Positions 42,304-64,000 are shown, counted from the first letter of the stretch. The stretch is 64,000 bases of DNA from Selenomonadaceae bacterium (GCA_036733925.1 DAIMZO010000001.1:31605-95604); one strand, 5' to 3'. Notes: generated from the sequence alone by a model not told the origin. Numbers and translations are program-made.

Positions 42304-44895
42304 ATGCAGCTAAGTGCTTGTTATATCGTAGGGACAGAGGCGGAGGATCTCGCGCATTCCATTGCTTCACTGGCGGGCGCCTATGACGAACTCATCGTCG
42401 TGCAGACAGCGGACAGCCCGGCGGTGCGCGGCGTGATTGAGCGCTATGGCGCGCGCACCGCTGTGAGCCCCTGGCAGGAAAATTTCTCAATCCCGCGCAA
42501 CGCCGCGCTCGGGCTCGTCCGCGGGGACTGGGTGCTGTTCCTGGACGCGGACGAATCCTTCCGCTCGAGCGTGGGACTGCGCGCGGCAATTGAAGAGGCC
42601 GTGCAGCGGGAGCCGGAGGCCGAGGGGTTCCTGTTGCCACGCATCGATATCGAACCGGAAAATGGGAGCGAAATCGCGCGGGGCATGTCCCTGCGCCTGT
42701 TCCGGCATTTGGACGATATCGTCTATCAGGGCAGCGTGCATGAGAATGCCTGTCACCGCGACGGCAGTCCCCTGCGCTTCGCGGTGGCCGGGGATGCGCT
42801 GACGCTGATCCATACGGGATACTCCCGGGATGCAGCACGGCGCAAGAAAGACCGGAACCTCCGCATGATGCGGCGCGCCATCGAAAGGAACGGCCCGATT
42901 CCGGCCTATGACGGCCCAATGGCGCAGTCGTATTTCGGCGAGGGGAAGTACCGGGAGGCCGCGCGCTATGCCCGGCGCGCGCTGGAATCGGAGATCCGGG
43001 AAGCCGTGCCGGACAGCGGCATCTATCACGTATGGATCGAGTCGCTGCGCCAGCTCGGCGCACCGCTCGACGAGCAGCTGGCGGCAGCGGAGCGCGCGGT
43101 GCAGGAGCTTCCAGCTTTCCCGGAACTATGGGGCGAGCTCGGCATGATTCTCTGCGGCCTCGGGCGCCTGCCCGAGGCAGACAGGGCGTTCCAGAGGGCA
43201 TTTGCGCTGTATGCGGATCCCGGGAATGTCTCGCACCGATCCGGCTATATGACGGCGGCCATTGCGGATCAATTGAAGGAAAAACAGGATGCCGTGGAGA
43301 GAATCTTGAAAGGAGATGGGACGATGAAACAGCCTCTGCGTATTTTTGCGGGGTATATCGTGCCGGAGGAGAATGAAGACCTGCGCCGTTCCATACGGAG
43401 CGTGCAATCGACGGTCGACCATATCCTGGTCTGTCACACAGCGGAAAAGCAGATGGGAGCATTGGAGCGTACAGTTGGCGCGGAGGTATTCTTCCGCCCT
43501 TGGGATGGAGACTTTGCCGCGGCCCGCAACGCTGTCCTGCAGCGCGCGGCGGGGCGCTGCGACTGGCTCATCTTCCTCGATGCCGATGAATCGTTCACCG
43601 AGGCGTCGCAGGCGCATCTGCGTGCAATCATCGAGCGGGCAGATGTACGGGCCGAGGGCCTGCTGATCCCGCTCGTGAATATCGACGCCGACCATGGAGG
43701 AGAAACGCAGGATAAGATGCTCGCCATGCGCGTCATCCGCATGCTGCCGGGAATCCATTACGTCGGAAGAATCCACGAAAGCCTCCGCCATGCGGATGGG
43801 ACAACGCTGGTCTCCGAGCGCATCCACGAGAAGGATCTGCAGATCCTTCATACAGGCTATTCCGCTAAGAGGCGTGCCGCAAAGGGGCAGAGGAATCTGG
43901 CGATGCTCGAGCAGGAGATGCGCGAGACCAAGCATCCGGAACTGCTCTATCATTATTTCGCAGATACTTATTTCGCGATGGACCGGCTGGAGGAAGCGGA
44001 GCATTATGCGAGACTCGACGTCGGGCTCGGCCGGCAGCCGCGGACGTTTGCCTCGAAATCCTACCGGATCCTGCTCCAGATCCTCGGGAAACAGCCGGAA
44101 CGGCGCGCAGAGTATGGAAGCATCGTCCGGGACGCCGTGCGCGACTTCCCGGAGCTGCCGGAATTCCGGGCGGAGTACGCGACCGTGCTCGCGCAGGAGA
44201 AGCGATGGAAAGAGGCAGCAGACGAGATGGAACAGGCCCTTTCCCTGCTCGGCAAACCGCAGGAAGGCACGGAGATCAGCCTGTTCCCGCCGGAGTTGCT
44301 CGAGACCGCGAAAAAAGAACTCGCCCGGTGGCGGGAGAAAACCCGTCCCGCGTCGGCGGAGCACTGCCTCGCGGCGCTCGCGCAGGCAGAGGGAAGGCTG
44401 CTCATGGCCCTGCTCGCCATGGGAGATCCGGACTACCGGGCAGACCGGACGAAAGCGGAGCTGCCGGAGCGCACGCGGCGGATCCTCGACGCGCAGCATG
44501 GCATAGGCACACTGCGCGTCGAGGATGCGGACGGATACCTTTCCGTTCTCGAGGTCGTGCTGCTCGCGGATTGTCCGGCGCTCTGGGCGCGCTACGCGGA
44601 GATGGCGGCGGTGCTGCCGCGGAAGATACGCCTTCAGGCAGCCGCGCATTTTGAGGCGCGCGGGGCAATCCGGGAAGCGCGGATGCTCTATGACAGCCTT
44701 CTTGTGGAAGGCGAGCAGGATGCCGGGGTAACTCTGCACCGCGGGATATGCGCGTATCGGCTCGGAGACCGCGCAGCAGCCCGGCGCGATTTCGACCGGC
44801 TCGGGCAGGATGGCGTGCAGCTGGATGAAAAGGAGCGCCATATCCTCGAATCGTATCGGATATGGAGCAGGAGCAAAGGGGAGGAACGGTCATGA
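42304..44895 (+). CDS. tandem [GT2 glycosyltransferase - TPR] x2 protein
   Basis: 863 aa. Two paralogous modules each carry ..PW..(N/D)F...RN.AL...DW.LFLDADE and .HTGYS....K..RNL motifs followed by TPR-like helices. The second module starts at ATG 43324, which has its own AAAGGAG. Confidence 0.8.
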   Translation: MQLSACYIVGTEAEDLAHSIASLAGAYDELIVVQTADSPAVRGVIERYGARTAVSPWQENFSIPRNAALGLVRGDWVLFLDADESFRSSVGLRAAIEEAVQREPEAEGFLLPRIDIEPENGSEIARGMSLRLFRHLDDIVYQGSVHENACHRDGSPLRFAVAGDALTLIHTGYSRDAARRKKDRNLRMMRRAIERNGPIPAYDGPMAQSYFGEGKYREAARYARRALESEIREAVPDSGIYHVWIESLRQLGAPLDEQLAAAERAVQELPAFPELWGELGMILCGLGRLPEADRAFQRAFALYADPGNVSHRSGYMTAAIADQLKEKQDAVERILKGDGTMKQPLRIFAGYIVPEENEDLRRSIRSVQSTVDHILVCHTAEKQMGALERTVGAEVFFRPWDGDFAAARNAVLQRAAGRCDWLIFLDADESFTEASQAHLRAIIERADVRAEGLLIPLVNIDADHGGETQDKMLAMRVIRMLPGIHYVGRIHESLRHADGTTLVSERIHEKDLQILHTGYSAKRRAAKGQRNLAMLEQEMRETKHPELLYHYFADTYFAMDRLEEAEHYARLDVGLGRQPRTFASKSYRILLQILGKQPERRAEYGSIVRDAVRDFPELPEFRAEYATVLAQEKRWKEAADEMEQALSLLGKPQEGTEISLFPPELLETAKKELARWREKTRPASAEHCLAALAQAEGRLLMALLAMGDPDYRADRTKAELPERTRRILDAQHGIGTLRVEDADGYLSVLEVVLLADCPALWARYAEMAAVLPRKIRLQAAAHFEARGAIREARMLYDSLLVEGEQDAGVTLHRGICAYRLGDRAAARRDFDRLGQDGVQLDEKERHILESYRIWSRSKGEERS

Positions 44896-47234
44896 TCCGG
44901 ATATCGGCCTGTGTGATTGTCAGGAATGAAGAGGAGAATCTGCCAGTATGGCTGGAAAACGTCCGCCCGTTTGCGGATGAGATCCTTGTCGTCGATACCG
45001 GTTCGACGGATGCGACGCGAGAAATCGCGCGCCGCGCAGGGGCGGAGCTCTATGACTTTCCCTGGCGGAACGACTTCTCCGCGGCGAAGAATTACGCGCT
45101 CGATCAGGCGACGGGCGACTGGATTGTGTTCCTCGATGCCGATGAATATTTTGCCCCAGAGTCGCAGGCGGAGCTCCGCGGTTATCTGGAACAGATGGAC
45201 GGCGACTTCCGCATTGCCGGCCTCGTCACGCCGCTTTACAATATCGATACGGACATGGATAACCGCATCGTGAACAAGCAGTATCAGATGCGCGTTTTCC
45301 GGCGCGACCGCTATCTGCGCTTTGAAGGGAGCATCCATGAAGCGGTCATCAACCATGAGCCCGACGGGAAAAAGCGCACGCTCCGCAAGGTAGAACAATT
45401 CGTCATCTATCATACGGGATATTCCACGCATATCCTGAAGGAAAAGGGCAAGCGCAATCTCGCCTTGCTCAAGAAGGCAATTGCGCGTGACGGGGAGATG
45501 CCAATTTATGATAACTACCTGTCCGATTGCTATGCGATTGCCGGCGATTATGAGAAAGCCGCTTATTACGCGGAAAAAGCACTGAAGGCGAATCCAGCAG
45601 ATGTCGGTGTCGGGCAGAGAGAAAAGCTGTATACGACGCTCATTTCTGCCAATTTTCAGTTGAAAGCGCCGTGGGCTAGGCGCTATGCGCTGCTGGAGCG
45701 CGCGGAAAAGGAGGTGCCCGGGACGTTTATCTTTCCCGGGTGGCGCGCAGGGATGCTGTTGGAGGACGGCAGGCTTGCGGAGGCAAAAAAAATCCTGTCC
45801 CGATGCCTCGCCATGGGATATCAGGAGAAAGAACCGAGCGACGCCTGCATGACGACAGATGGCATGGTCAAGCTTCCTCATTTTGAAGCACGGATGGCAG
45901 AAATCCAGCGCGCCTGCGGGGATGAGGCGGCAGAAGAAGCGCATCTGCAGAAGTCGCTTGAGCTTTGGCCTGAGCAGAAGGGAGTCCTGCGGCGTTATCT
46001 CGAATGCATCGGGAAGCGGCCGCCGCAGTGGCAGATCCAGGAGCTCGAACGGCTGTTCGCGGGCCGTCAGAAAAAGATCCTCGAGGAGGAACTGGCCCGG
46101 AAATTCCCGTCACCGGTCACGCAGCATTTCCTGAAGCACGCAGAGGGTTCCTATGCGGCTGCTTTCGCCTCTGGCGACCTCTGCGGCGCCGCGCAGCTCG
46201 CTGCCGCAGAGGTGCGCGAAACGCGCCAGAGAGGGGAAGGGCAGGATGGCTGGAACGCGGTGCAGAAAAAGGCATGGGCTATGCTCGCGGTCCATCCAGC
46301 AGCAGAGCCGAAAATCAGCATCCTGCTGCCGACCTTCGAGCGCCCAGAGCTGTTTGAGGAGACGCTGAGGAGCGCCCTCGCACAGGACTATGCGCCGCTC
46401 GAAATCCTGGTTTGCGACAACAGCCGGGACGACCGGACGGAAACGCTCGTGCAGAAATATCTCGGGGATGCGAGGCTATCGTACTGCCATCAGCGCAATG
46501 CGCGGACGAAGGCGGAGAATTTCCAGTCCTTCCGCCAGCTCGCGACGGGCGATTATTTCCAATGGCTCATGGATGATGATCTGCTCCTGCCCAAGAAGCT
46601 CAGCAAGATGGCGGCTATTCTCAAAACGAATCCGCAGGTCCGTCTCGTGACGTCGGAACGCGCTTTTATCGATGCAGAGGGCCGGATCATCGAGCAGCCG
46701 CGCCCGTTCTCGATTCAGGGGGAGTACGGCGTATTTGACGGTGCGGAGCTTAGCCGGATCATGCTGCGGGAATGCCGCAATCCGGTCGGGGAGCCGTCGG
46801 CGGTACTGTTCCGCCGCAATGACCTCGAGGATCATTATTTCGATGCGGCATGCCGCGGCTACCGGACGATATCCGACGTCGCGATGTGGCTGGAACTCAT
46901 GGAGAAAGGCGATATCGCCGTATTTGCGGAGCCGCTTTCCTGCTATCGCCGCCACGCGGGACAGGAGGGGCAGCAGCCCGATGTGCTCGTGCTCTCGCGT
47001 ATCGAGTGGTTCGAGCTCAATACCGATTATCTGGAGAAACGGCATGCCTTCGGCTATGGGAAGCCGGACTACCTCGCGGCATGCCGGAAACTGCTCGCGG
47101 TCAGTGAGAGACTCCTTCCGCTGGAGGCGCAGGTGCGGCCGGCACTATGGGAGCTGTACGAGGGCTGCCTCGGAACCATACGTCATATTCTGAAGGAGGC
47201 CAAAGAAGTTGAACCGGGAAAAGAAAATCCTTGA
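44892..47234 (+). CDS. GT2 - TPR - GT2 multidomain glycosyltransferase
   Basis: The N-terminal module is paralogous to the previous gene (FPWRNDFSAAKNYAL..GDWIVFLDADE, YHTGYS). The C-terminal module is a classical GT2 (ISILLPTFERPELFEETLRSALAQDY...VCDNSRDD). ATGA overlap with the upstream gene. Confidence 0.8.
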   Translation: MIRISACVIVRNEEENLPVWLENVRPFADEILVVDTGSTDATREIARRAGAELYDFPWRNDFSAAKNYALDQATGDWIVFLDADEYFAPESQAELRGYLEQMDGDFRIAGLVTPLYNIDTDMDNRIVNKQYQMRVFRRDRYLRFEGSIHEAVINHEPDGKKRTLRKVEQFVIYHTGYSTHILKEKGKRNLALLKKAIARDGEMPIYDNYLSDCYAIAGDYEKAAYYAEKALKANPADVGVGQREKLYTTLISANFQLKAPWARRYALLERAEKEVPGTFIFPGWRAGMLLEDGRLAEAKKILSRCLAMGYQEKEPSDACMTTDGMVKLPHFEARMAEIQRACGDEAAEEAHLQKSLELWPEQKGVLRRYLECIGKRPPQWQIQELERLFAGRQKKILEEELARKFPSPVTQHFLKHAEGSYAAAFASGDLCGAAQLAAAEVRETRQRGEGQDGWNAVQKKAWAMLAVHPAAEPKISILLPTFERPELFEETLRSALAQDYAPLEILVCDNSRDDRTETLVQKYLGDARLSYCHQRNARTKAENFQSFRQLATGDYFQWLMDDDLLLPKKLSKMAAILKTNPQVRLVTSERAFIDAEGRIIEQPRPFSIQGEYGVFDGAELSRIMLRECRNPVGEPSAVLFRRNDLEDHYFDAACRGYRTISDVAMWLELMEKGDIAVFAEPLSCYRRHAGQEGQQPDVLVLSRIEWFELNTDYLEKRHAFGYGKPDYLAACRKLLAVSERLLPLEAQVRPALWELYEGCLGTIRHILKEAKEVEPGKENP

Positions 47235-50200
47235 ACGCCTGCGGGAAATGGAGCGGGCATACGACCGGGGGGATCGGCAGGGCACTCTGTCCATCGCCAA
47301 GGAAATCCTGAAGCAGCGTCCGAGAAACCGCCAGATGCTGGAGCGGCTGCTGTCCCTGTTCGTCGACTGCTCGGAGAAGGAGGCGGCGAGGGACTGCCTC
47401 GCGCTGCTCAAGCGCTTTTTCCCGGAGACGGGCTATCAATGTTTCCTCGAGAGCCGTGTCGACGAGATCTGCGGTGAGCTGGAGGAGAGCATACGGATGG
47501 CGGAAAAGGCGCTCTCCTATCCGGATCTGCTGCCGTGGCAGCGGTCGATGACCGAGAATATCCTCGGCCATACCTGCCGCATGCTCGGCGACGCAGAGAA
47601 GGCGGCAAAGCATTATCTGGCATCGGCGCGCATGCGGCATTCCTCCGTTCAGGGGGATGACCGGCTCGCAGTACAGGACTACAGCAACTACCTATTCACG
47701 ATACACAATCTGCCAATCAGCCGCGAGGAGATGTTTGCACGCATCTGCGATTACGGCAAGTATTTCCGATCGGTAAAGCCCTTCGCGCACCAGCGCAGGA
47801 ACCGCCACGAGAAGCTGCGCATCGGGTATCTGTCGCCGGATCTCCGCTTCCACGTGGTCGCGTTCTTCAGCTATGCCCTGCTGAAATCCTATGACAGGAA
47901 CAGCTTCGAGGTCTATGCCTATGCCGCCTGTGAGGAGGACAGCGCGAGCCGGGAGTTTGCGGCGGGCGTCGACGTCTGGCGCAATGTGCGGCTGATGGAG
48001 CCCGAGGAAACGGCGCGGCGGATCTATGAGGACCAGATAGACATCCTGTTCGATTTGTCCGGGCATACGGCGAATAACTGCCTGCCGGTGCTGGCCTACC
48101 GGCCCGCCCCCGTGCAGATTTGCGGAATCGGCTGGTTTGATTCCACGGGGCTTCCCACGGTTGACGCGTTCCTTGCCGACCGGTACACGGATCCGCCCGG
48201 ACTGAACGACGCTTTTTTCACCGAGAAACTGATCCGGCTGCCGCACAGCCATTTCTGCTATATGTGGCATGATAAGCCGATGGGGGTCGGGGCGCCGGCC
48301 TGCCGGCAGAACGGCTATGTGACGTTCGGCTCCTTCAACAATTTCGCGAAGGTCACCGACGAGATGCTCGGACTCTGGAAGCAGATCCTCGCGCGCGTGC
48401 CGCACTCGCGCTTGTATCTCAAGGCGGCTATTTTCAATACGGAGGATGGCTGCGCGCGCGTCCGGGCGCGCCTGCATGCCGCGGGCATCGACGAGGGACG
48501 CGTGCGCTTCGGCCGGCAGGAGCCGGTATACCTGAAGGAGTACCGGCAGGTGGACATCGCGCTCGACACCTTCCCCTATCCGGGCGGCGGGACGACCTGC
48601 GATGCGCTCTATATGGGCGTGCCGGTCATCACGCTGACGGGCAGGCGGCATAACGCGCGGTTCGGCTACAGCCTGCTGATGAATATGGGCCTGCCGGAGC
48701 TCTGCGCGGCGTCACCGGAAGAGTATGTCGAAAAGGCCGTCTCGCTCGCGGCGGATACCAAGCGGCTGACGCAGTACCACCTGACCCTCCGGCGCAGGAT
48801 GCGGGAATCGCCGGTCATGCAGGACGGGCCGTATATGGCGGAAGTGGAGTCCGCCTATCATGCACTCTATCAGGACTGGCTCTGCCAAGGGCAGGAAAAG
48901 GAGCAGGAGGACGCGCAGGCGCGTTGGCGCGGCGCGATGCGGGCCGCGGAGCAGAAGGAGGCATACGGGGATGTCGTCCGCTATGGCAGCCGCCTGCTGA
49001 CAGAGAAATGGGAACAGGCGGCATCTGCAGAGGAGGTGCGTGCCTGCCGCCTCTCGTTCGGCATGGCCTATGCGCGCCTCGCAGAGGGCGGCAATACAGA
49101 TGCGAAACGCGCCGCTTACTGGCTTGCCCGCACGGAGGGAAAGGATGAGCGTGAAGAACTCTGGCGGCTCGCTTTCCTCGGGGAGATGCGGACGGCGGTC
49201 ATGGACTATGCCGGTGCCCGCGATGCGTTCCGGCAGGCCCTGCCGCTGGCATGGGCGCAGCGGAGCGCCGAACCGGAGCTGTGCACCGAGCTTTTCGGGG
49301 AGGCTGCCGGCGTTTTCCTCGACTGTGGTGATCCCGCGGCCGCCTTTGAACTGTATCAGAAGCAGCTGATGACCGCGGGAAAATGGGAAAAGATGCTAAG
49401 CGCGTACAGCTCCTTGCTGCTCGTCGCGCACTACCTGCCGCTGAATCAGGCAGAGCTTTGGAACCTGCATCAGGGCTATGCCGAACTGTTCCGCGGCGTG
49501 GAGCCGCTGCCGCCCGCGCGCTGGAAGAACAAGAAGCTGCGGATCGGCTATCTGTCCGCGGATTTCCGCATGCATGTGATGTTCCCCTTCTATTTCGGGT
49601 TGCTGGCCTGCCATGACTGCACGCGCTTTTCCGTGACCTGCTACAGCCTGAGCCGGACGCAGGACGCTTTTACCGGGGAAGTGCGCCGCAGGGCCGAACG
49701 TTTCGTCGACCTTTCGGCGCTGAATGTTGCGGAGGCGGCAAGGGTCATCCGGGAGGATTGTATCGATATCCTCGTGGATCTCGGCGGGCATTCCGGGGGG
49801 AGCGGGCTGCCAATCCTCGCCTATCGCCCGGCGCCCCTGCAGGTCTCCGGCATCGGGTATCTGGACACGACGGGCCTGCCGGCGGTGGACGCCCTGATTA
49901 CCGATGATGTGCTGGATCTGCCGGAGACCCGGGAAAAGTATATCGGGGAGCGGCGGCTCGTGCTGCCCTGTGCGTTCTGCTATGTGGGGCGCAGCGATAT
50001 CGCACCGTCTACGGGAACGCCGGCCGCGTCGGGAAAGCCGCTGGCGTTCGGCGTATTCAACCACTACCGGAAGATCACGGATGAGATGCTTGACGCGTGG
50101 CGTCAGATCCTCGAACGGGTACCCGGAAGCCGGCTGCTCCTGAAATCGCAGGAATTCGGGAGCGATACCGTCACGGATCTGGCGTATGCACGCTGCCAGA

Positions 50201-50685: not shown

Positions 50686-50728
50686 ATGGTAGAAATGGCA
50701 ATGGTAATGGTATGGCAATGGTATGGAG
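50686..50728 (+). repeat. ATGG(T/C)A hexamer/pentamer microsatellite (7 units) upstream of the TPR gene
   Basis: ATGGTA gaa ATGGCA ATGGTA ATGGT ATGGCA ATGGT ATGGAG. The last unit supplies the GGAGG RBS for ATG 50738. Confidence 0.85.
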
Positions 50729-50737
50729 GCATTTGGC

Positions 50738-54697: not shown

Positions 54698-54699
54698 GC

Positions 54700-55479
54700 A
54701 TGAAAGCAGTAATCCTGGCCGGCGGGTACGGCACGCGGATCTCAGAGGAGTCGCAGTACAAGCCGAAGCCGATGGTCGAGATCGGCGGCATGCCGATCCT
54801 ATGGCATATCATGAAGGAATATTCGGCTTATGGCATACAAGATTTCATCATCTGTGCCGGCTATAAACAAGAAATAATCAAGGAGTGGTTCAACAACTAC
54901 TTCCTGTACATGAGCGACGTGACGTTCGACATGACGGATGGCAAGAAGGTCATCCTGCACGAGCAGCATGCGGAACCGTGGCGTGTGACCGTCGTTGATA
55001 CGGGGGAGGCGACGCTGACGGGCAGCCGCATCAAACGCGTGCAGAAATACGTTGGGAATGAGACCTTCTGCATGACGTACGGCGACGGCGTCTGCGATGT
55101 CGATATCCAGAAGGTCATCGCGTTCCATCGGAAGCATGGCAAGATTGCGACGCTCACGGCGGTCCTGCAGAAGCAGTCGAAGGGCGTGCTGAATATCGGC
55201 GGCGATTTCGCCGTGAAATCCTTCCGCGAGAAATCGCAGATGGACAGTGCGCCCATCAATGCCGGCTACATGGTCTTGGAGCCGGAAATCTTCGACTATC
55301 TGACAGAGGACGGCTGCATCTTTGAGCAGGAGCCCATGCGCCGCCTTGCGGCAGAGGGACAGCTCATGAGCTATCAGCACCGCGGTTTCTGGCAGTGCAT
55401 GGACACGCTTTATGAGAAAATGGAACTAGAACGGCTTTGGGAAAGCGGGGCGGCACCATGGAAAGTATGGGACAAGTGA
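54700..55479 (+). CDS. rfbF: glucose-1-phosphate cytidylyltransferase
   Basis: MKAVILAGGYGTRISEESQYKPKPMVEIGGMPILWHIMK is the RfbF/DdhA signature. Confidence 0.9.
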   Translation: MKAVILAGGYGTRISEESQYKPKPMVEIGGMPILWHIMKEYSAYGIQDFIICAGYKQEIIKEWFNNYFLYMSDVTFDMTDGKKVILHEQHAEPWRVTVVDTGEATLTGSRIKRVQKYVGNETFCMTYGDGVCDVDIQKVIAFHRKHGKIATLTAVLQKQSKGVLNIGGDFAVKSFREKSQMDSAPINAGYMVLEPEIFDYLTEDGCIFEQEPMRRLAAEGQLMSYQHRGFWQCMDTLYEKMELERLWESGAAPWKVWDK

Positions 55480-56576: not shown

Positions 56577-57898
56577 ATCAGCAGGAAATGCACGACAAGA
56601 TCCTAGAGATGGTCAAGGAGTATTGCGATACGTACCACCAGCCAAAGCCGTACCACGAGGGTGACCGCATCCCGTATGCGTCCCGCGTCTACGACCACGA
56701 GGAGATGTGCAACCTCGTCGACAGCGCGCTCGAGTTCTGGCTGACGGCCGGCCGCTATGTGGATGAGTTCGAGAAAGAGCTCGCGAAATACCTCGGCGTC
56801 CGCTTCGTGTCGGTCGTGAACTCGGGTTCGTCCGCGAACCTGCTCGCGTTCATGACGCTGACCTCGCCGAAGCTCGGCGACCGCCGGATCCGCCGCGGCG
56901 ACGAGGTCATCACAGTCGCGGCCGGCTTCCCGACGACCGTTTCACCAATCGTGAACTACGGCGCGGTGCCGGTATTCGTCGACGTCACGATCCCGCAGTA
57001 CAACATCGACGTGACGAAGCTCGAGGCGGCCTTCTCGGACAAAACGAAAGCCGTCATGATCGCCCATACGCTCGGCAACCCGTTTGACCTGCAGGCGGTC
57101 AAGGCGTTCTGCGACAAGCACGGCCTCTGGCTCATCGAGGATAACTGCGACGCGCTCGGCTCGCTCTACACGATCGACGGCGAGGAGAAGTTCACCGGCA
57201 GCGTCGGCGACATCGGCACGTCGAGCTTCTACCCGCCGCATCACATGACGATGGGGCAGGGCGGCGCCGTCTACACGGATAGTCCGCTCCTCAACCGCAT
57301 CGCGCGTTCCTTCCGCGACTGGGGCCGCGACTGCGTCTGCGCGCCCGGCGAGGACAACCACTGCGGCCACCGTTTCGACGGGCAGTACGGCGAGCTGCCG
57401 AAAGGCTACGACCATAAATACGTCTACTCCCATTTCGGCCTGAACCTCAACATCTCCGACATGCAGGCCGCCGTCGGCTGCGCCCAACTCAAGAAGTTCC
57501 CGGGCTTCGTCGAGCGCCGCCGCCATAACTTCAATTACCTCAAAGCGGGCCTCCGTGACCTCGAGGACAAGCTCATCCTGCCCAAGGCTGCCCCGAACAG
57601 CAAGCCGAGCTGGTTCGGTTTCCTCATGACCTGCCGCGAGGGCGTCGACCGGAGGGAAGTCGTGCCCTACATCGAGAGCAAAGGCGTCCAGACCCGCATG
57701 CTCTTCGCTGGCAACCTCATCAAGCACCCATGCTTCGACGAGATGCGTGAGACAGGTGAGGGCTACCGCATCGTCGGCTCCCTCGAGAACACCGACCGCA
57801 TCATGAACGACACCTTCTGGGTCGGCGTCTACCCCGGCATGACTGACGAGAAACTCGACTACATGATCAAAGTCATCCATGAAGCCGTGAAGGCGTAA
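56573..57898 (+). CDS. rfbH: CDP-6-deoxy-L-threo-D-glycero-4-hexulose-3-dehydrase (E1, RfbH/DdhC)
   Basis: ITVAAGFPTTV, SFYPPHHMTMGQGG and SFRDWGRDCVCAPGEDNHCGHRF (Fe-S Cys cluster) match RfbH along its length. ATGA-coupled to rfbG. Confidence 0.9.
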   Translation: MNQQEMHDKILEMVKEYCDTYHQPKPYHEGDRIPYASRVYDHEEMCNLVDSALEFWLTAGRYVDEFEKELAKYLGVRFVSVVNSGSSANLLAFMTLTSPKLGDRRIRRGDEVITVAAGFPTTVSPIVNYGAVPVFVDVTIPQYNIDVTKLEAAFSDKTKAVMIAHTLGNPFDLQAVKAFCDKHGLWLIEDNCDALGSLYTIDGEEKFTGSVGDIGTSSFYPPHHMTMGQGGAVYTDSPLLNRIARSFRDWGRDCVCAPGEDNHCGHRFDGQYGELPKGYDHKYVYSHFGLNLNISDMQAAVGCAQLKKFPGFVERRRHNFNYLKAGLRDLEDKLILPKAAPNSKPSWFGFLMTCREGVDRREVVPYIESKGVQTRMLFAGNLIKHPCFDEMRETGEGYRIVGSLENTDRIMNDTFWVGVYPGMTDEKLDYMIKVIHEAVKA

Positions 57899-57949: not shown

Positions 57950-59554
57950 ATGGCAATGGCAACGAGAGAATTATTAGATTGTACGCTGCGCGATGGTGGC
58001 TACGTCAACGATTGGGAATTCGGGCACGACAAGATTACGGAGATTTTCAAACGTCTGGTGAGTTCGGGGGTCGAATTCATTGAAATCGGATTCCTCGATG
58101 AACGCCGTGAATTTGATAGGAATCGCACGATTTTCCCGGATACGCAGTCTGCTAACAAGATTTTTGCCGGACTCGATAAGGGGAATGCGACCGTCCTCGC
58201 GATGATTGATTATGGCACTTGCGGCATCGAGCATCTGCAGCCGGCCAAGGATACCATCATCGACGGAATCCGCGTGATTTTCAAAGAACATCTGATGTAC
58301 GAAGCGCTGGACTTCTGCAAGCAGGTCAAGGCCCTCGGCTACAAGGTCTTTGCACAGATGGTTTCCGTTACAACCTATACGGACGAGAAACTGAAAGTTT
58401 ACGCGGAGGAATGCAATAAACTCATGCCATTCGCGACGTCCATGGTCGATACGTACGGTCTGCTCGATCAGGAGCATCTGATGCACATCTTCGGCATCCT
58501 GGATGCGAACCTCAATCCGGCCATCAAAGAGGGGTTCCATGCGCACAACAATTTCCAGCTCGGCTATGCTAATGCAAAAGCATTTCTCGCCTGTGACAGT
58601 AGCAGAGATCTGTTGGCGGATGGCACGCTGTATGGCATGGGGAAAAGCGCGGGCAATGCGCCGCTCGAACTGCTCCTCATGTACCGCAATGAGAAACAGG
58701 GTGCGCACTATGACGTCAGTCAGGCGCTCGAGGCTATCGACAATGTAATCCTCGATATCTATCGGAAGCAGTATTGGGGCTATAATATGTTCTTTTATAT
58801 TGCCGCCTCGACGCAGTGCCACCCGAACTATGTGCGCTATTTCATGAACAAGAAGACGCTGTCCGTCAAACAGATTCTGGACATCCTGCACAGCCTGAAA
58901 AAAGAGAAGCAGCTCCTTTACGATGCCAAGTACGCCGAGCAGATGTATCTGGAGTATCAGAGTGTCGAATGCGATGACAAAAAGACGCTGAACGAGCTCA
59001 AGAAACGGTTCAGCAATCAGGATATCCTGCTGATCGGCCCGGGTAGGAACATCCAGCGGCAGAAATCGAAGGTGCGTGACTATATCGTTGAGCACCGTCC
59101 CCTGACTGTTGCCGTGAACTATGCGCCGAAGGACATCAAAGTGGACTACATCTTCCTGACGAAATCCAAGCGCTATACCCAGCTCATGAACGACCTGCAG
59201 GGCAGCATCAACGAGGATGTGGACATCCTTGCGACGTCCAACGTGACGAAGACTGCCGGTACATTCCGCTACGTGCTGAAATACGAATCCCTGATCGATC
59301 CGGACACGGAAATCATCGATAACTCGCTGGTCATGCTCATCAAAGCGATGATGGAAATCGGCGTCAAAGCGGTCAATCTGGCGGGATTCGACGGATACTC
59401 CAAGAGCGAGGATAACTATTTCGACATCAGCCGGGAGTACAGCTTTGTCAAGGAGAAATCCGGCTACCTGAACCAGTACGTCAAGGACTTCCTGCAAAAA
59501 GTCTCCGACGAAATAGCTGTTCAGTTTATCACTCGTTCCTACTATAAAGACTGA
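57950..59554 (+). CDS. HMGL-like aldolase-domain protein fused to a C-terminal Maf/MptE(DUF115)-like region
   Basis: N-terminal LLDCTLRDGGYVNDWEFG is a pyruvate-carboxyltransferase/aldolase TIM-barrel signature. The C-terminal ~190 aa (ILLIGPG...NLAGFDGY) is a separate domain, and its assignment is tentative. Confidence 0.65.
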   Translation: MAMATRELLDCTLRDGGYVNDWEFGHDKITEIFKRLVSSGVEFIEIGFLDERREFDRNRTIFPDTQSANKIFAGLDKGNATVLAMIDYGTCGIEHLQPAKDTIIDGIRVIFKEHLMYEALDFCKQVKALGYKVFAQMVSVTTYTDEKLKVYAEECNKLMPFATSMVDTYGLLDQEHLMHIFGILDANLNPAIKEGFHAHNNFQLGYANAKAFLACDSSRDLLADGTLYGMGKSAGNAPLELLLMYRNEKQGAHYDVSQALEAIDNVILDIYRKQYWGYNMFFYIAASTQCHPNYVRYFMNKKTLSVKQILDILHSLKKEKQLLYDAKYAEQMYLEYQSVECDDKKTLNELKKRFSNQDILLIGPGRNIQRQKSKVRDYIVEHRPLTVAVNYAPKDIKVDYIFLTKSKRYTQLMNDLQGSINEDVDILATSNVTKTAGTFRYVLKYESLIDPDTEIIDNSLVMLIKAMMEIGVKAVNLAGFDGYSKSEDNYFDISREYSFVKEKSGYLNQYVKDFLQKVSDEIAVQFITRSYYKD

Positions 59555-59569
59555 TAGGGGAAATGTACG

Positions 59570-60310
59570 ATGTGTAAGTTCAAAGGTAAAGTGGCTCTGG
59601 TCACTGGTGGCTCCTCAGGAATAGGGGGGGCGACATCTGTCCTTCTGGCACGGAGTGGAGCTGACGTAATATTTGTTGGAAGAGATTCTGTCAAAGGAAA
59701 AGAGCAGGAAGAACGGATACGGTCCGAACATGGGAAGGCAAGATTCATTCCGGCGGACGTTTCGAAACGGTCGGATATCGAGCGATTGAAGGATATCATC
59801 GTTAACGAATATGGCCATTTAGATGTATTGTTCAATAACGCGGGAATCCTATTGACTGGTGCATTGGATGAGCTGACGGATGAAGAATGGGATAAGAGCT
59901 ATGAAGTGAACGTCAAGGCGACTCTGCATATGTGCCAGGCATTCATGGGGATGCTGCAGGCCTCGCATGGCGTTATCCTGAATAATGCCTCTATCAATGG
60001 ATTGCATACCTATATCAAGGGGAAACGCAGCTATATGTATGCAACTTCCAAGGCCGCGAATATTCAGCTGACAAGATATCTGGCAAAGAACTATGCGCCA
60101 GAAGTCCGCGTGAACGCCATTTGCCCGGGGATGACGAAGACGAATTTATTCACGAACCGCGATTTTTCCCGTTTCAAGGATGTCAATCTGCTAGGTCGTA
60201 TGGCGGATCCAATGGAAATTGCGAAAACGGCACGGTTCTTACTGTCCGATGATTCCTCGTTCATGACAGGATCGATTGTTGTCGTAGACGGGGGTGAAAC
60301 CATCCGCTGA
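59570..60310 (+). CDS. short-chain dehydrogenase/reductase (candidate YerF-like ketoreductase)
   Basis: TGGSSGIGGAT, NNAG and Y-x3-K (YATSKAA) SDR motifs. Confidence 0.85.
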   Translation: MCKFKGKVALVTGGSSGIGGATSVLLARSGADVIFVGRDSVKGKEQEERIRSEHGKARFIPADVSKRSDIERLKDIIVNEYGHLDVLFNNAGILLTGALDELTDEEWDKSYEVNVKATLHMCQAFMGMLQASHGVILNNASINGLHTYIKGKRSYMYATSKAANIQLTRYLAKNYAPEVRVNAICPGMTKTNLFTNRDFSRFKDVNLLGRMADPMEIAKTARFLLSDDSSFMTGSIVVVDGGETIR

Positions 60311-60388
60311 AAATGGTGCGGATGGTTTGGATATGGATGGAATCGTATATCGCCTTTTGTGATATGTGAGGATGAGGGAAGAATTTCT

Positions 60389-62194
60389 ATGAAACAGAAG
60401 GTATCGGATTATATAGCAGATTTTTTTGTTCATCATGGACTGAGTCAGGTTTTCTGCGTCGTCGGCGGTGGGGCTATGCATCTGAATGATTCGTTCGGGC
60501 ACCGAGACGATATGCATGTCCTGTATAATCACCATGAGCAGGCATCGGCTATGGCGGCAGAAGCTTATGCTAGGGTAGCCGGAAAACCTGCTGTCCTGTG
60601 CGTGACCAGCGGCCCCGGTGCAATCAATGCGTTGAATGGTGTCGTTGGTGCGTATCAGGATTCCATTCCGATGCTTGTGGTTTCCGGGCAGACGAAATCC
60701 ACCCTTACGGTCAAGCATAGCGGCCTGAACCTTCGGACTCTTGGCAATCAAGAATTTGATATCGTATCGACCTTGGATCATGTAGCGAAATATGCGGAAA
60801 CAATCATGGAGCCGAAAAAAATCCGTTACTGTTTAGAGAAAGCCTATATATCCGCCGTTTCCGGGCGGCCAGGACCGGCGTGGCTGGATATTCCATTGGA
60901 TATTCAGGGTTCTTATGTTGAGACGGATGAATTGGAAGGCTATGAACCGTCTGCGGCTGAAAATCATCATACCGATTTATCGCTGGTCATGCCTAGAATT
61001 TCGAGACTGCTGAAGAAAGCGAAACGGCCGGTGCTTTACGCTGGAAATGGCATTCGGATTGCAGGCGGCAGCGAGCTTTTCAAAAAACTTGTCGATAGGT
61101 ATCGTATTCCCGTTGTGACCTGTTGGGACAGCATCGACCTGATGCCTACGGACAGTCCCTACTACTGCGGCCGCGGTGGTACGATGGGAGACCGCGCCGG
61201 CAATTTTGCCGTCCAGAACAGTGATTTGCTGATCTGTATTGGAACAAGGCTGAACATCTATCAGGTCGGGTATAATGTCAAAACATGGGCAAGAGCGGCG
61301 ACAACGGTCGTAGTAGACATTGATCCGGAAGAGCTGAAAAAGCCGATCCTGCGCGCGGATATTCCAGTTTGTGCGGACGCCGTCGACTTCATGACTGCCT
61401 TTATCGAATCCGTAGATGAGGTGAAAGCTGACGAAGATTGGATCCGTCAATGCCAAGCATGGAAGAAGAACTATCCAGTCGTGCGGCCCGAACAGCTGGC
61501 CCAATCCGGCGCAGTGAATGTCTACGCGTTCATGGATGCCCTGAGCAAGCATCTTCCCGATGCGTCGATAACCGTGGTGACGAATGGATCTGCCAGCGTG
61601 GTCGGGAGCCAGTCTTATTATATCAAGAATCACGACCGTTTTATCATGAACTGCGGATTGTCCTCGATGGGGTATGGGCTCCCCGCTGCAATCGGTGCGT
61701 GTGTGGCAAGTCACCATCATCCTGTTGTTTGCCTAGAGGGCGATGGAAGCATCATGATGAATCTTCAGGAACTGCAGACGATGGTAACGAATCAGCTGTC
61801 AATCAAGCTTTTTGTTATCAATAATCATGGCTATCATCAAATCCGGCAGACGCAGAATAATATTTTCCACAATGGTTTGATTGGTGTAGGGCCGGAGAGT
61901 GGTGATTTAGGTTTTCCAGATTTCCAGAAACTTGCCGCAGCCTTTGGTATCCGTTATGTCGGAATCAAGAACAATCAGCGCATCCAAGATGGCCTGAATG
62001 AAGTTTGGCTGGATGAGGATGCCTGCCTATGCGAAGTCTTCGTGACGACCACGCAGAAGTTCGAACCGAAGTCGGCGACCAAGAAGTTGCCGGACGGAAC
62101 ATTGGTCAGTCCGCCACTGGAGGATATGGCCCCGTTCCTGCCAAGGGAAGAGTTGAAGAAGAATATGTATATTCCGCTGGTTCCAGAGGTATAA
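60389..62194 (+). CDS. thiamine-diphosphate-dependent acetolactate-synthase-like enzyme (candidate YerE-like C-branching enzyme)
   Basis: N-terminal Pyr domain (HEQASAMAAEAYARVAGKPAVLCVTSGPGAINAL) and C-terminal ThDP motif (GDGSIMMNLQELQT...NN). No small regulatory subunit gene is nearby. Confidence 0.85.
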   Translation: MKQKVSDYIADFFVHHGLSQVFCVVGGGAMHLNDSFGHRDDMHVLYNHHEQASAMAAEAYARVAGKPAVLCVTSGPGAINALNGVVGAYQDSIPMLVVSGQTKSTLTVKHSGLNLRTLGNQEFDIVSTLDHVAKYAETIMEPKKIRYCLEKAYISAVSGRPGPAWLDIPLDIQGSYVETDELEGYEPSAAENHHTDLSLVMPRISRLLKKAKRPVLYAGNGIRIAGGSELFKKLVDRYRIPVVTCWDSIDLMPTDSPYYCGRGGTMGDRAGNFAVQNSDLLICIGTRLNIYQVGYNVKTWARAATTVVVDIDPEELKKPILRADIPVCADAVDFMTAFIESVDEVKADEDWIRQCQAWKKNYPVVRPEQLAQSGAVNVYAFMDALSKHLPDASITVVTNGSASVVGSQSYYIKNHDRFIMNCGLSSMGYGLPAAIGACVASHHHPVVCLEGDGSIMMNLQELQTMVTNQLSIKLFVINNHGYHQIRQTQNNIFHNGLIGVGPESGDLGFPDFQKLAAAFGIRYVGIKNNQRIQDGLNEVWLDEDACLCEVFVTTTQKFEPKSATKKLPDGTLVSPPLEDMAPFLPREELKKNMYIPLVPEV

Positions 62195-62207
62195 GGAGAT
62201 AATGGAT

Positions 62208-63266
62208 ATGGAAATTCAATCGAGATTCAAAATCTATTCTGTGAACTTCGTAGATTCTTTGCGGGATATTGCAGATTTGGCAGATAAGCCAGAGACATTC
62301 TTTGTTTTTGATTGTCAGGTTTACACGAAATATCAATCGGAACTGCCAGATCTTCCAGAAGGAAAGCTGTTCCTGATGGATGCGGAAGAAACGAATAAGA
62401 ACATGGATACGGTCTTGGCGATATGCGAACAGATGACCAATATGCCGTCAAAACGGAACACGCATCTCATATCCGTTGGAGGCGGTATTGTCCAGGATAT
62501 TACCGGCTTTGTTGCATCGAGCTTGTACCGCGGAATACGATGGACGTTTTATCCATCTACCTTGCTCGCATCCTGCGATAGCTGCATCGGCGGGAAATCT
62601 TCCTTGAATTACAAAGGCTTCAAGAATCTTCTAGGATCGTTTTACCCTCCAGATGAAATCCGTATCTATCCACAGTTTTTCCATACTTTATCCGCACGGG
62701 ACTATTGCAGCGGGTTGGGCGAAGTCGTGAAATTCAACGTCATTGCGGGCGGTTCTGCGTTCGATAAGATGGAGAAAGACATCGATGCTATTCTGAGCCA
62801 TGATTATGACAAGCTGCAGCAATATATCCAGACATCCCTGCATTTCAAGAAAACGTTTATTGAAGAAGATGAGTTTGACCGTGGCGTACGTATCCTGCTG
62901 AATTTCGCACATACGTTCGGGCATGGATTTGAAGTCAGCAGCAATTATGTCATTCCGCATGGGACGGCGGTTGCTTTGGGGATGATTACGGCAAACAATA
63001 TTTCGGTGCAGCGCGGCTGGATGGATTCGGCATATGCGGAGCGGATCGAAAAAGTATGCCGGAGAATCCTCACCGAAATCGTATGGAAATCGGAATATTT
63101 CCATCTGGACGTCCTGCTGCGCGCCATTCACAAAGACAAGAAACAGACGAGCCATGCGATTACCGCGGTCTTGATCCAGAAAGATGGTACCCTTGGCCTG
63201 GTGCACGATGTTCAGGAATCCGAGATCGAGCAGGCGGTACATCATCTTATAGAATGTCTCGTGTAA
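62208..63266 (+). CDS. 3-dehydroquinate-synthase-like (sugar phosphate cyclase superfamily) enzyme
   Basis: GGGIVQDITGF, PSTLLASCDSCIGGKSSLNY, KNLLGSFYPP, HTFGHGFE and HGTAVALGM align with DHQS motifs. ATG 62208 lies 9 nt after AAGGAG. ATG 62202 is the alternative. Confidence 0.8.
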   Translation: MEIQSRFKIYSVNFVDSLRDIADLADKPETFFVFDCQVYTKYQSELPDLPEGKLFLMDAEETNKNMDTVLAICEQMTNMPSKRNTHLISVGGGIVQDITGFVASSLYRGIRWTFYPSTLLASCDSCIGGKSSLNYKGFKNLLGSFYPPDEIRIYPQFFHTLSARDYCSGLGEVVKFNVIAGGSAFDKMEKDIDAILSHDYDKLQQYIQTSLHFKKTFIEEDEFDRGVRILLNFAHTFGHGFEVSSNYVIPHGTAVALGMITANNISVQRGWMDSAYAERIEKVCRRILTEIVWKSEYFHLDVLLRAIHKDKKQTSHAITAVLIQKDGTLGLVHDVQESEIEQAVHHLIECLV

Positions 63267-63293: not shown

Positions 63294-64000
63294 ATGGCAG
63301 AGGAAGTAAGGGAATTAGAGAATGGGAATCGGGTCGTCGGGCAGGCATACGGGAACGCAAACCTGCAGTTTCAGGGGCATGATTCCAGTATCGTTTTTGG
63401 TGAGAATTGTTATTTTTCCAATGTCCGGCTTTTTATCGGCAGCAATGTCAAGGTTTCATTCGGCAGCAATGTGGTATGGAATCATGGCGATATTTTTTTG
63501 CCGGAGGGCGAATCATCTTTCGTGGTGGAGAATGGATGCAGTCTGGGAGGGGATATAGAAATCGCCCGATACGGTGCCGTTCATATCGGGGAGGGAACGA
63601 CAACGCCTTCTGGAAGAATCGGGATGCCGGGCAATGTCTTTTCGGTCAGCCCGTGGACGTCGCTCGATATCGGCAAAGGATGTGCAATCTCTTGGGGCGT
63701 AACATTCCTGACGAATGACGGGCACACGATTTTCGACGTGCGCACGGGGCAGAACCTCAATTCTACAGAGGAAATCAGCAGGAAGAGGAAAATCGTCGTT
63801 GGCGATCATGTGTGGATCGGCTGCATGTCGACAATTCTCTACGGGAGCGTCATCGGTGATGGGAGCATCATAGGGGCACACAGTCTGGTAAAAAGGCGCA
63901 TACCGAATAACTGTCTGGCGGCGGGCAATCCGACGCGGATCATACGCCGCGATGTAGCTTGGAGCCGCACGAATTGCAACATGGATATGGCACATTGTAT
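63294..64000 (+). CDS. hexapeptide-repeat (LbH) acetyltransferase, 3' end outside window
   Basis: My own translation from ATG 63294 (GAGGTG RBS) stays open to the window end. ...VVGDHVWIGCMSTILYGSVIGDGSIIGAHSLVKRRIPNNCLAAGNPTRIIR is a typical LbH O-acetyltransferase C-terminus. It is not in the supplied ORF track because no stop lies in the window. Confidence 0.8.
   Translation, partial: MAEEVRELENGNRVVGQAYGNANLQFQGHDSSIVFGENCYFSNVRLFIGSNVKVSFGSNVVWNHGDIFLPEGESSFVVENGCSLGGDIEIARYGAVHIGEGTTTPSGRIGMPGNVFSVSPWTSLDIGKGCAISWGVTFLTNDGHTIFDVRTGQNLNSTEEISRKRKIVVGDHVWIGCMSTILYGSVIGDGSIIGAHSLVKRRIPNNCLAAGNPTRIIRRDVAWSRTNCNMDMAHC

Follow-up and report, generated by a model that had tools for sequence, protein, structure and literature searches.

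Flagellin glycosylation islands (FGIs) are a well-known kind of gene system. In Enterobacteriaceae (De Maayer & Cowan 2016, PMC4875605) and Clostridium (PMC13317340), they comprise variable gene sets next to the flagellin gene that encode glycosyltransferases (GTs) of family GT2 or GT41, nucleotide-sugar pathways and acetyl- or methyltransferases. GT41 genes were described for enterobacterial FGIs (PMC4875605); for Clostridium, the combination of GT2 and tetratricopeptide repeat (TPR) domains has already been used as a marker of flagellin GTs, and a 3,6-dideoxyhexose was predicted on the flagellin of C. sporogenes (PMC13317340). Among the characterized enzymes, GmaR of Listeria monocytogenes is bifunctional, acting in flagellin glycosylation and as MogR antirepressor; its N-terminal GT domain transfers N-acetylglucosamine (GlcNAc) to flagellin and its TPR domain was proposed to recognize the latter (PMC9638930). 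Furthermore, Caulobacter FlmG contacts flagellins through its TPR domain (PMC7591256), and Maf-2 needs the separate adaptor GlfM (PMC13317340 citing Unay et al.). In this study, a stretch of 64,000 nucleotides (nt) from a Selenomonadaceae bacterium (GCA_036733925.1, DAIMZO010000001.1:31605-95604), hereinafter referred to as the window, was analyzed for a gene island that starts at position 42304 directly downstream of the flagellin gene fliC. Based on the homology of its GTs to GmaR and GT41 enzymes, the predicted solubility of its products and the adjacency to fliC in 37 of 58 related loci, a role as cytoplasmic flagellin O-glycosylation island of a Selenomonadaceae member is proposed with good confidence.

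Organization of the island

Between position 42304 and the end of the window, 13 genes were found, all located on the plus strand and tightly spaced or overlapping, the first of which (G1) starts 19 nt after the hairpin of the fliC terminator (Table 1). An earlier note, made from this DNA alone, had described a co-directional, tightly packed gene set right after the flagellin terminator and five large proteins of 863, 780, 1155, ~343 and 959 amino acids (aa), and both descriptions agree with the open reading frames (ORFs) observed. These five proteins (G1 to G5) are followed by genes for nucleotide-sugar biosynthesis (S1 to S8'), as the note had stated, and the island extends beyond position 64000, where the S8' ORF (start ~63294) is cut by the window end. 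Genes G1/G2 and G5/S1 overlap by 4 nt, as do S2/S3 if S3 starts at its probable ATG, and the remaining intergenic gaps measure 7–80 nt. Upstream of fliC, the genes flgN, flgK, flgL, fliW, csrA, flaG, fliD, fliS and fliT are located, placing the GT and sugar-biosynthesis genes directly next to the flagellin gene inside a flagellar locus.

Membrane-like segments were not detected in any plus-strand ORF of the region 42304–64000 (maximum 19-residue Kyte-Doolittle mean of 1.52), and all island proteins are predicted to be soluble. Long minus-strand ORFs in the island (e.g., 51740–54562, 940 aa) were rejected as antisense shadows, because the plus-strand genes at these positions show strong family matches and have homologues of 70–90% identity. 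Those minus-strand ORFs featuring membrane-like segments are shadows of G5, S3 and S4.

Table 1. Positions of the island genes and of the flagellar features discussed in the text (positions refer to the window).
Feature	Position	Strand	Description
fliW	36874-37323
csrA	37327-37554		follows fliW; 75 aa, MLVLTRKPKQQ...
fliC promoter	40745..40774	+	sigma-28/sigma-D-like, TTAAG-N16-CCGATAAT, read by eye; putative role; ~150-nt leader after
fliC	40925..42232	+	flagellin, presumed glycan acceptor; 435 aa from ATG 40925; mechanical ORF from 40877
fliC terminator	42259..42294	+	intrinsic; 11-pair G+C-rich hairpin 42259-42284, then T run
G1	42304..44895	+	863 aa; two tandem GmaR/SunS-like GT2 modules, residues 1-200 and 345-548
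G2	44892..47234	+	780 aa from ATG 44892 (mechanical ORF from 44862, 790 aa); GmaR-like GT2 1-205, TPR/helical ~205-470, generic GT2 ~473-673
G3	47209..50676	+	1155 aa; two tandem [helical arm + GT41] modules, catalytic ~173-562 and 770-1145
G4	50723..51766	+	347 aa (342 from ATG 50738); TPR-only, acidic low-complexity linker
G5	51818..54697	+	959 aa; GT2 13-225, Glyco_tranf_2_5 305-483, hexapeptide acyltransferase ~525-630, GT2 ~640-760+ (Pfam, PDB)
S1	54694..55479	+	glucose-1-phosphate cytidylyltransferase (RfbF/DdhA type); TIGR02623 385.7 bits, cut-off 300.25; likely ATG 54700
S2	55437..56576	+	CDP-glucose 4,6-dehydratase (RfbG/DdhB type); TIGR02622 431.1 bits, cut-off 278.45; likely start 55458/55467
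S3	56474..57898	+	RfbH/E1-type CDP-4-keto-6-deoxyglucose 3-dehydrase; NF011936 718 bits, cut-off 423; likely ATG 56573
S4	57950..59554	+	two-domain; 4-hydroxy-2-oxovalerate-aldolase-like TIM barrel 1-320, C-terminal alpha/beta domain 338-534
S5	59570..60310	+	short-chain dehydrogenase/reductase; Pfam adh_short_C2 184 bits
S6	60359..62194	+	YerE/JanthE-like ThDP-dependent carboligase; three TPP domains, GDG-x26-NN; likely ATG 60389
S7	62202..63266	+	AroB-related putative sugar-phosphate cyclase; TIGR04425 447.3 bits, cut-off 400
S8'	63294..64000	+	hexapeptide-repeat O-acetyltransferase, WbbJ/maltose O-acetyltransferase-like, partial; WbbJ E 1e-17, Vat E 8e-16, both under NCBIfam cut-offs

GmaR-like GT2 modules of G1 and G2

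Applying a Pfam scan and module-by-module BLAST, nine GT modules were identified in G1, G2, G3 and G5, namely three of the GmaR/SunS-like GT2 type with TPR, two of family GT41 (SPINDLY/OGT-like), three generic GT2 modules and one Glyco_tranf_2_5 module. At least eight had been claimed before, with hidden Markov model (HMM) searches of the ORFs suggested as a check; Pfam GT matches were obtained for all four proteins, and the count of nine follows from Pfam and self-comparison. G1 consists of two units, each composed of a GT2 domain and a helical/TPR part (G1a, residues 1–344; G1b, residues 345–~650; 33% identical to each other), and a helical tail (residues ~650–863); Pfam assigned Glycos_transf_2 in two stretches as well as TPR_2. 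The N-terminal unit of G2 (G2a) is 31–35% identical to both G1 units and precedes a second, SpsA/TuaG-like GT2 (G2c). Pfam matches of G2 were Glycos_transf_2 (142.5 bits), Glyco_tranf_2_3 for the second GT2, and TPR_14.

In PDB sequence searches, the GT domain of GmaR (22ao) was matched by the N-terminal GT2 of G2 with E = 5.6e-34 and 38% identity over 186 aa, and it was the best match of G1 (E = 1.1e-17), followed by ThuS/SunS. For G2, the peptide S-glycosyltransferases SunS (E = 1.3e-18) and ThuS ranked next; residues 473–589 matched SpsA (E = 4.5e-9). The G1 and G2 modules thus share with GmaR a homologous N-terminal GT-A type GT2 domain of ~190 residues, including the motifs ISAC-IV-NEE, W-x-NDFS-x-A-x-N, DADE, IHE, YH-x-GY, K-x2-RN and, in G2a only, DTGSTD; likeness furthermore extends to the order of GT domain and TPR, to solubility and to the flagellar gene context (PMC9638930). 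In contrast to GmaR, the island modules are tandemly duplicated (G1) or fused to a generic GT2 (G2), and the nucleotide motif of G1a and G1b is changed. Moreover, they lie beside GT41 modules and a large sugar-tailoring gene set, so that an oligosaccharide is expected rather than the single GlcNAc transferred by GmaR. The SunS family was the best NCBIfam model for G1 and G2, with scores well under the cut-off (91 bits for G1), and the label of a SunS-type S-glycosyltransferase was rejected; neither Pfam nor NCBIfam provided a functional equivalog for G1 to G5.

The changed motif of G1a and G1b raises the question of whether these modules are active. DTGSTD, the nucleotide-binding motif, is shared by GmaR, G2a and the main clusters of related modules (~240/270), whereas G1a carries VQTADSP and G1b CHTAEKQ in its place. 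This loss would fit a partial decay, in which G1a, G1b and possibly one GT41 half serve as catalytically dead flagellin-binding scaffolds, leaving fewer active transferases and a simpler glycan than the module count suggests. Such decay is considered rather unlikely in view of the remaining motifs: DADE, HE, H-x-GY and K-x2-RN are present in G1a, G1b and G2a, and in a 13-sequence alignment reaching down to 28% identity, these residues (with DAD(E) for the first motif) do not vary in either G1 module. In addition, the 'VVQT' variant of G1a is itself conserved among its homologues, an 18-member clade of first-position modules from oral Selenomonas also lacks DTGSTD, and both GT41 halves keep all four of their signature motifs. 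The loss therefore looks like a conserved change, possibly of the nucleotide donor, rather than decay, and G1a and G1b are candidates for the use of a donor other than uridine diphosphate (UDP) sugars.

GT41 modules of G3

G3 scored 277.9 bits against Pfam Glyco_transf_41 (cut-off 25), with four stretches spanning both halves, which are 41% identical. Best PDB matches were plant SPINDLY (E = 2.4e-74), Thermobaculum TtOGT (5djs, E = 1.5e-59), Xanthomonas XcOGT (E = 2e-40) and human O-GlcNAc transferase (OGT; ~1e-36). The motifs DFxxH, GH[TS], FNxxxK and GGGTT, which we take to be catalytic and donor-binding signatures of OGT, are kept in both halves (DFxxH at residues 211/785, FNxxxK at 376/950, GGTT loop at 459/1033); the His, Lys and GGTT motifs presumably correspond to H498, K842 and T921-T922 of human OGT. 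Like SPINDLY, 5djs, XcOGT and human OGT, each G3 half combines a full catalytic domain with an N-terminal helical arm. Unlike these enzymes, G3 comprises two complete modules (up to three in relatives), its arms (residues 1–195 and 560–775) match TPR models weakly (TPR_12 and TPR_14, sub-threshold, E = 0.003–0.013), and its location beside flagellin suggests a single dedicated substrate.

Regarding other FGIs, GT2 and GT41 are reported to be mutually exclusive in the enterobacterial islands, which encode one to three GTs each, whereas both families occur here, with nine modules in four proteins. Moreover, the island differs by the lack of Maf and nonulosonic-acid genes (no Pfam match to MAF_flag10/DUF115 in any island protein; genes for pseudaminic or legionaminic acid were not found) and by a predicted YerE-type branching step added to a dideoxyhexose pathway.

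TPR protein G4 and fused protein G5

G4 features TPR_19 (40.4 bits) and ANAPC3 (31.9 bits) matches above the Pfam cut-offs, and a homologue is encoded 3' of GT41 genes in many related loci. By analogy, it is a candidate trans-acting flagellin-binding adaptor, and this free TPR protein could correspond to GlfM of the Maf-2 system. With the FlmG and Maf systems, the island would share the principle of a soluble enzyme that binds flagellin via its TPR part and, by its GT part, glycosylates it in the cytoplasm (PMC7591256); the helical arm of G3 followed by a GT-B domain is analogous to FlmG by architecture alone. FlmG had been named as the architectural model in the earlier note; the closest characterized enzyme is Listeria GmaR, in which GT2 precedes TPR.

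G5 contains three GT modules (G5a, G5b and G5d) and the embedded hexapeptide acyltransferase expected from the earlier note (Pfam Hexapep). In close relatives, it is represented by two adjacent ORFs (L082; matches in L086 reach up to the end of that locus; L numbers denote related loci). The first of these ORFs encodes a GT2-Hexapep protein of 626 aa, the N-terminus of which matches residues 10–279 of G5 with 81% identity; residues 281–959 are 71% identical to the entire next ORF of 674 aa in L082. G5 hence corresponds to an in-frame fusion of two genes with loss of ~350 residues, and the fusion appears to be recent, caught in the act. Both G2c and the GT2 modules of G5 resemble polysaccharide GT2 enzymes (SpsA, chondroitin synthase, TuaG, EpsD) and are best seen as putative elongating enzymes.

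Genes for nucleotide-sugar biosynthesis

The products of S1 to S3 were assigned at equivalog level (Table 1). S3 possesses a C-x61-C-x-C-x7-C cysteine motif and His-His at the position of the pyridoxal phosphate (PLP)-binding lysine of aminotransferases; the cysteine (Fe-S) motif and the His in place of the PLP lysine are presumably hallmarks of E1. The expected product of these three enzymes is CDP-4-keto-3,6-dideoxy-D-glucose (CDP, cytidine diphosphate).

S6 is a thiamine diphosphate (ThDP)-dependent enzyme for which JanthE (8rph) was the best PDB match over the full length (E = 2e-130); 5ahk, which we take to be PpYerE, matched with E = 2.3e-59. An assignment as acetolactate synthase was rejected, as S6 scored under all corresponding NCBIfam cut-offs and the best acetolactate synthase in PDB reached only E = 2.5e-67. 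JanthE represents a YerE-like ThDP lyase. The nucleotide sugar CDP-3,6-dideoxy-4-keto-glucose is the acceptor to which YerE and ErwE attach decarboxylated 2-oxo acids, and 4-hydroxy-2-oxo acids are among the substrates taken by ErwE and JanthE (PMC12188165, PMC12247030).

The aldolase-like assignment of S4 is based on Pfam HMGL-like (74.8 bits), PDB entry 3dxi (E = 5.9e-24) and an AlphaFold2 model (predicted local distance difference test, pLDDT, 84) with aldolase fold matches. Its C-terminal domain of ~195 residues (window positions 58961–59554) shows the motifs GPG, VNYAP, ATSNV and LAGFDGYS and 67% mean column identity. The model of this domain (pLDDT 89, predicted template modeling score 0.88) yielded no significant PDB match, the best being the cell-division regulator SteA (TM 0.52, E = 4e-3). 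A Maf/MptE-like or sialyltransferase-like fold, suspected from GPG and NYA, thus found no significant support in this comparison and was not used. S5, for which no NCBIfam equivalog reached its cut-off, is a candidate for the keto-reductase of the branch, a YerF-like role. S7, for which 3-dehydroquinate synthases scored best in PDB (E = 2.7e-45), is missing from the otherwise similar cassettes of relatives L079–L085 and raises the possibility of a carbocyclic or further-cyclized sugar.

Considering RfbF, RfbG and RfbH together with the YerE/JanthE-like S6, the S4 aldolase and the S5 dehydrogenase/reductase, the predicted product is a CDP-activated 4-C-branched 3,6-dideoxyhexose of the yersiniose/erwiniose class. 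The known pathway (DdhA-C, YerE/ErwE, YerF) is paralleled by the equivalog-level RfbF/G/H proteins, the YerE-like S6, a short-chain dehydrogenase/reductase as possible reductase and an aldolase for hydroxy-keto-acid donors. It differs in that the genes considered here lie in a flagellin island and not in an O-antigen cluster, that no E3 reductase was seen among them, and that an AroB-related cyclase and an aldolase with a C-terminal domain of no known fold match are added. Furthermore, Selenomonadaceae possess many S4 homologues of high conservation, which co-occur with dehydratase, cytidylyltransferase, RfbH and ThDP enzyme genes, and the rest of the cassette varies: close relatives swap the dehydrogenase/reductase for a HAD hydrolase, encode methyltransferases or a radical SAM enzyme, and the identity of their S6 amounts to only 47%. 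In addition, two short Logan contigs (L001, L002) cover S4 to the start of S7 with protein sequences identical to those of the window.

Occurrence and module composition in related genomes

Related loci were collected using one genome per species, which resulted in 76 loci that do not include the genome of the window; the best G1 relative among them is ~40% identical. Nearly all belong to Selenomonadaceae (Selenomonas, Centipeda, Mitsuokella, Schwartzia, Pectinatus, Megamonas, Anaerovibrio, Quinella), with G1 homologues originating from Selenomonas and Mitsuokella, and the organism is a member of this family (Negativicutes). Synteny was counted for the 58 loci whose upstream DNA extends over 1.6 kb or more. 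In 37 of these, a same-strand fliC gene, 60–80% identical to that of the window, ends less than 700 nt 5' of the first GmaR-like module, and in three more it is found within 1.5 kb. The adjacency to fliC is therefore frequent, not obligatory, and the island does not follow the flagellin gene in every case, a question raised in the earlier note. A recurring gene order is fliC, GmaR-like GT, GT41 and G4-like TPR protein, e.g., in S. sputigena ATCC 33150 (L055). The same kind of layout after a Selenomonadaceae-type fliC (69% identical), with GmaR-like, TPR and GT41 parts and an RfbH fragment 83% identical to S3, was observed in a metagenome-assembled genome (MAG) labelled Acetatifactor sp. (Lachnospiraceae; L044, JBGVKL010000016.1), representing either mis-binning or horizontal transfer.

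According to HMM counts, the ORFs of relatives carry one to three GmaR-like and one to three GT41 modules. Oral Selenomonas typically encode a three-module protein of ~1305 aa, one further GmaR-like protein and up to five GT41 modules, and in rumen lineages (L027–L029, L034) single ORFs of ~2140 aa unite three GmaR-like and two GT41 modules. Other fusions of both kinds range from ~1480 to 1810 aa (L078, L024, L035). These fusion ORFs tie the two module kinds functionally in the sense of Rosetta-stone evidence. With its three plus two modules in three proteins, the window is no outlier; the degree of fusion and duplication, regarded as unusual in the earlier note, is typical and even modest for the family.

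The island furthermore evolves rapidly. The closest genome by flagellar proteins (78–96% identity; FlgK 91%, FlgL 91%, FliS 96%) is that of the MAG Selenomonadaceae bacterium SUG529 (L048, JALFBM010000014.1). There, five GmaR-like modules that are only ~33% identical to G1 directly follow fliT; fliC is absent between fliT and the GT genes, and neither GT41 nor fliC was found in the 13 kb of available downstream DNA. The closest island is that of L086, extended by L082 (G1 62%, G2 68%, G3 75.5% and G4 50% identical). The island thus differs completely between close relatives and is hypervariable versus its flanks, as expected for a surface-antigen locus. Between one and five protein-directed GT modules per polypeptide occur across relatives. 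Tentatively, and as a speculation to which we give clearly less than even chances, Selenomonadaceae may possess a combinatorial toolkit of two unrelated protein-directed module types, GmaR-like GT2 and GT41, each with a binding arm of its own, and the evolutionarily rapid rearrangement of these modules by duplication, exchange, splitting and fusion would provide each strain with several distinct glycans per flagellin; in the present case, one of these might contain a 4-C-branched 3,6-dideoxyhexose, possibly cyclized in AroB-like fashion, attached via GmaR-like modules switched from UDP- to CDP-sugar donors.

Evaluation of the proposed function

Several points weigh against the proposed flagellin O-glycosylation. 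In general, the sequence does not reveal the sugar, the site or the acceptor, and the function of the island is a prediction. The many TPR arrays named in the earlier note were recovered in part: matches above the Pfam cut-offs follow G1a (TPR_2, 33.3 bits at a cut-off of 27; TPR_12, 30.5; TPR_1, 28.0) and G2a (TPR_14, 24.4 bits at a cut-off of 23.5) and are present in G4, whereas those after G1b (TPR_19, E = 0.0015), in the G1 tail and in both G3 arms stay below them (E = 0.002–0.02). G1a and G1b, owing to their changed nucleotide-binding motif, could be inactive or non-catalytic. Regarding the sugar pathway, an E3 reductase (AscD/RfbI/DdhD; ferredoxin-reductase type) was not found among the island genes in the window nor within 10 kb 3' of S4 in relatives. 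The island ends outside the window, and the reductase gene may follow position 64000 or lie at another genomic site. The roles of S7 and of the S4 C-terminal domain are unexplained by the pathway. Moreover, ~16 loci (a quarter to a third) lack a flagellar gene in the available flanks, some of which extend to 10 kb. The five-module gene of L029 (9953–16369) is surrounded by genes for methylmalonyl-CoA mutase, a Na+ symporter and an SbmA-like ABC transporter, and flagellar genes were not found within 10 kb of it. Finally, in PDB sequence searches the C-terminal TPR, linker and antirepressor (MogR-binding) part of GmaR had no detectable counterpart in G1 (E <= 0.01) or G2 (E <= 0.001), and only the 204-residue GmaR GT-domain entry was hit.

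Giant GTs located away from flagellar genes, including the stand-alone five-module proteins, would be compatible with a general cytoplasmic system for protein O-glycosylation or regulation, in which flagellin is one of several targets of the GmaR-like and GT41 modules or in which some modules are regulators as is GmaR. The bifunctionality of GmaR (PMC9638930), the many substrates of the GT41 enzymes OGT and SPINDLY, the modification of pilin by a cyanobacterial OGT (PMC9306852) and the Ser/Thr-richness of FliD, FlgK and FlgL point in the same direction. Such a general system is nevertheless judged improbable, since the antirepressor region of GmaR has no detectable homologue in G1 and G2, tight adjacency to fliC is the majority arrangement, and the island encodes no other candidate acceptor.

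The sugar cassette, on the other hand, might serve lipopolysaccharide (LPS), selenomonads having an outer membrane. The entire cluster or a part including G5 and the S genes would then build an envelope glycan (LPS O-antigen, capsule or S-layer), with the adjacency to fliC due to chance or shared regulation. YerE-like enzymes and 4-C-branched 3,6-dideoxyhexoses are so far known from LPS or lipooligosaccharide (LOS) (PMC12247030), and an envelope role would also suit the kinship of G2c and the G5 modules to polysaccharide GT2 enzymes, the homologous giant GTs away from flagellar genes and the G+C content of S4 to S8', which amounts to 0.49–0.50 compared to ~0.60 before and suggests a mobile cassette. 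This explanation is regarded as highly improbable, however. No Wzx, Wzy, Wzz, ABC exporter, phosphoglycosyl transferase, ligase or membrane protein is encoded in the 21.7 kb, in line with what the earlier note had observed for Wzx/Wzy/Wzz, phosphoglycosyl transferase and ABC exporter, and such export or polymerase genes were not found within 10 kb 3' of S4 in relatives. Five of the modules belong to protein- or peptide-directed GT families. Furthermore, the same sugar cassette is located 3' of fliD-fliS-fliT in L079–L081 and 3' of GT41/TPR/GT2 genes in L082, and this placement argues for a flagellar role. Cytoplasmic flagellin O-glycosylation, favored over LPS or capsule synthesis already in the earlier note, hence remains the preferred interpretation of the island, supported by GmaR/GT41 homology, predicted solubility and synteny with fliC.

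Flagellin, its expression and the surrounding genes

The fliC product was recognized by Flagellin_N (128.5 bits) and Flagellin_C (79.5 bits) in Pfam, and the ribosome-binding site AAGGAGG precedes its ATG. Serine and threonine account for 32% of flagellin residues 151–320 (41375–41885), with a 50-residue peak of 46%, and for 26% of FliD, 22% of FlgL and 20% of FlgK, compared to 10% of the island proteins, which bears out the Ser/Thr-richness noted earlier for the flagellin center, FliD and FlgK/L. Since Ser/Thr-rich variable domains are common in flagellins, this property alone is no evidence.

The putative fliC promoter (Table 1) includes CCGATAAT, a sequence with a single occurrence in the window; no match was obtained for the strict sigma-28 consensus TAAA-N14-17-CCGATA. 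The hairpin of the fliC terminator was obtained in both minimum-free-energy and centroid folds and is flanked by the fliC stop (42232) on its 5' side and the G1 start codon (42304) on its 3' side. As no space for a promoter is left between terminator and G1, the GT operon is presumably expressed by terminator read-through. A FliW-CsrA-flagellin partner-switch controls the translation of flagellin in other Firmicutes, and fliW, csrA and the ~150-nt leader of fliC together represent the components of such a switch.

The G+C content falls from ~0.58–0.61 to 0.49–0.50 in two blocks, 58000–64000 and 14001–18000, and both look like acquired DNA. The former is the S4 to S8' sugar cassette; the latter comprises genes for a PTS EIIC-GAT permease (13666–15012, minus strand) and a PRD/EIIA/HTH regulator (15824–18079). 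Upstream of the flagellar genes, a PAS-GGDEF-EAL protein and a P-type ATPase are encoded (21365–23242 and 28849–30984), and the former may provide motility with a c-di-GMP input. Farther upstream, genes for hydantoinase/oxoprolinase A and B, thiG/thiH-like genes and a fumarate reductase flavoprotein gene were observed.

Proposed mechanism

Based on these results, the following course of flagellin O-glycosylation is proposed. Transcription of the GT operon mainly by read-through of the fliC terminator would provide much flagellin and little enzyme. In the cytoplasm, the five protein-directed modules (the GmaR-like G2a, G1a and G1b, and the GT41 modules G3a and G3b) would dock on flagellin via their own helical/TPR arms, perhaps aided by the free TPR protein G4, and place the first sugars on Ser/Thr residues of its surface-exposed central domain. 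Both docking and glycosylation would precede export of flagellin through the flagellar type III apparatus. Subsequently, G2c, G5a, G5b and G5d may extend the glycans, which the G5 Hexapep domain and the trailing acetyltransferase S8' could acylate, resulting in a presumably long, complex glycan.

For the nucleotide sugar, S1 to S3 would form CDP-4-keto-3,6-dideoxy-D-glucose, a step requiring an E3-type reductase, of which none was found in the window. S4 may supply a 4-hydroxy-2-oxo acid, which S6 would decarboxylate and add to C-4, and S5 would reduce the branch. The resulting CDP-activated 4-C-branched 3,6-dideoxyhexose could then be used as donor by one of the modules.

Significance for Selenomonadaceae

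New compared to described FGIs are the joint occurrence of GmaR-like GT2 and GT41 modules, their tandem duplication and combinatorial fusion throughout the family, the G5 fusion, and the predicted YerE-type branching pathway in a flagellin island. The choice of acceptors and sites by cytoplasmic O-glycosyltransferases is poorly understood. Selenomonadaceae provide a natural domain-swap series of GmaR-like and GT41 modules, varied in number and order, with which acceptor recognition could be dissected and protein glycosylation engineered. To our knowledge, 4-C-branched 3,6-dideoxyhexoses have so far been found only in LPS or LOS; if it is true that the YerE-type sugar ends up on flagellin, branched dideoxyhexoses would extend from LPS to protein glycosylation. 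The flagellin of the oral pathobiont Selenomonas sputigena, the only one with experimental support, is described as heavily O-glycosylated, with 22 distinct glycopeptides, in two sources that both cite Rath 2018 (PMC13339959; bioRxiv 10.1101/2024.05.20.594992). For these unusually heterogeneous glycans, which may affect TLR5 or antibody recognition as well as inter-species adhesion, the island offers candidate enzymes.

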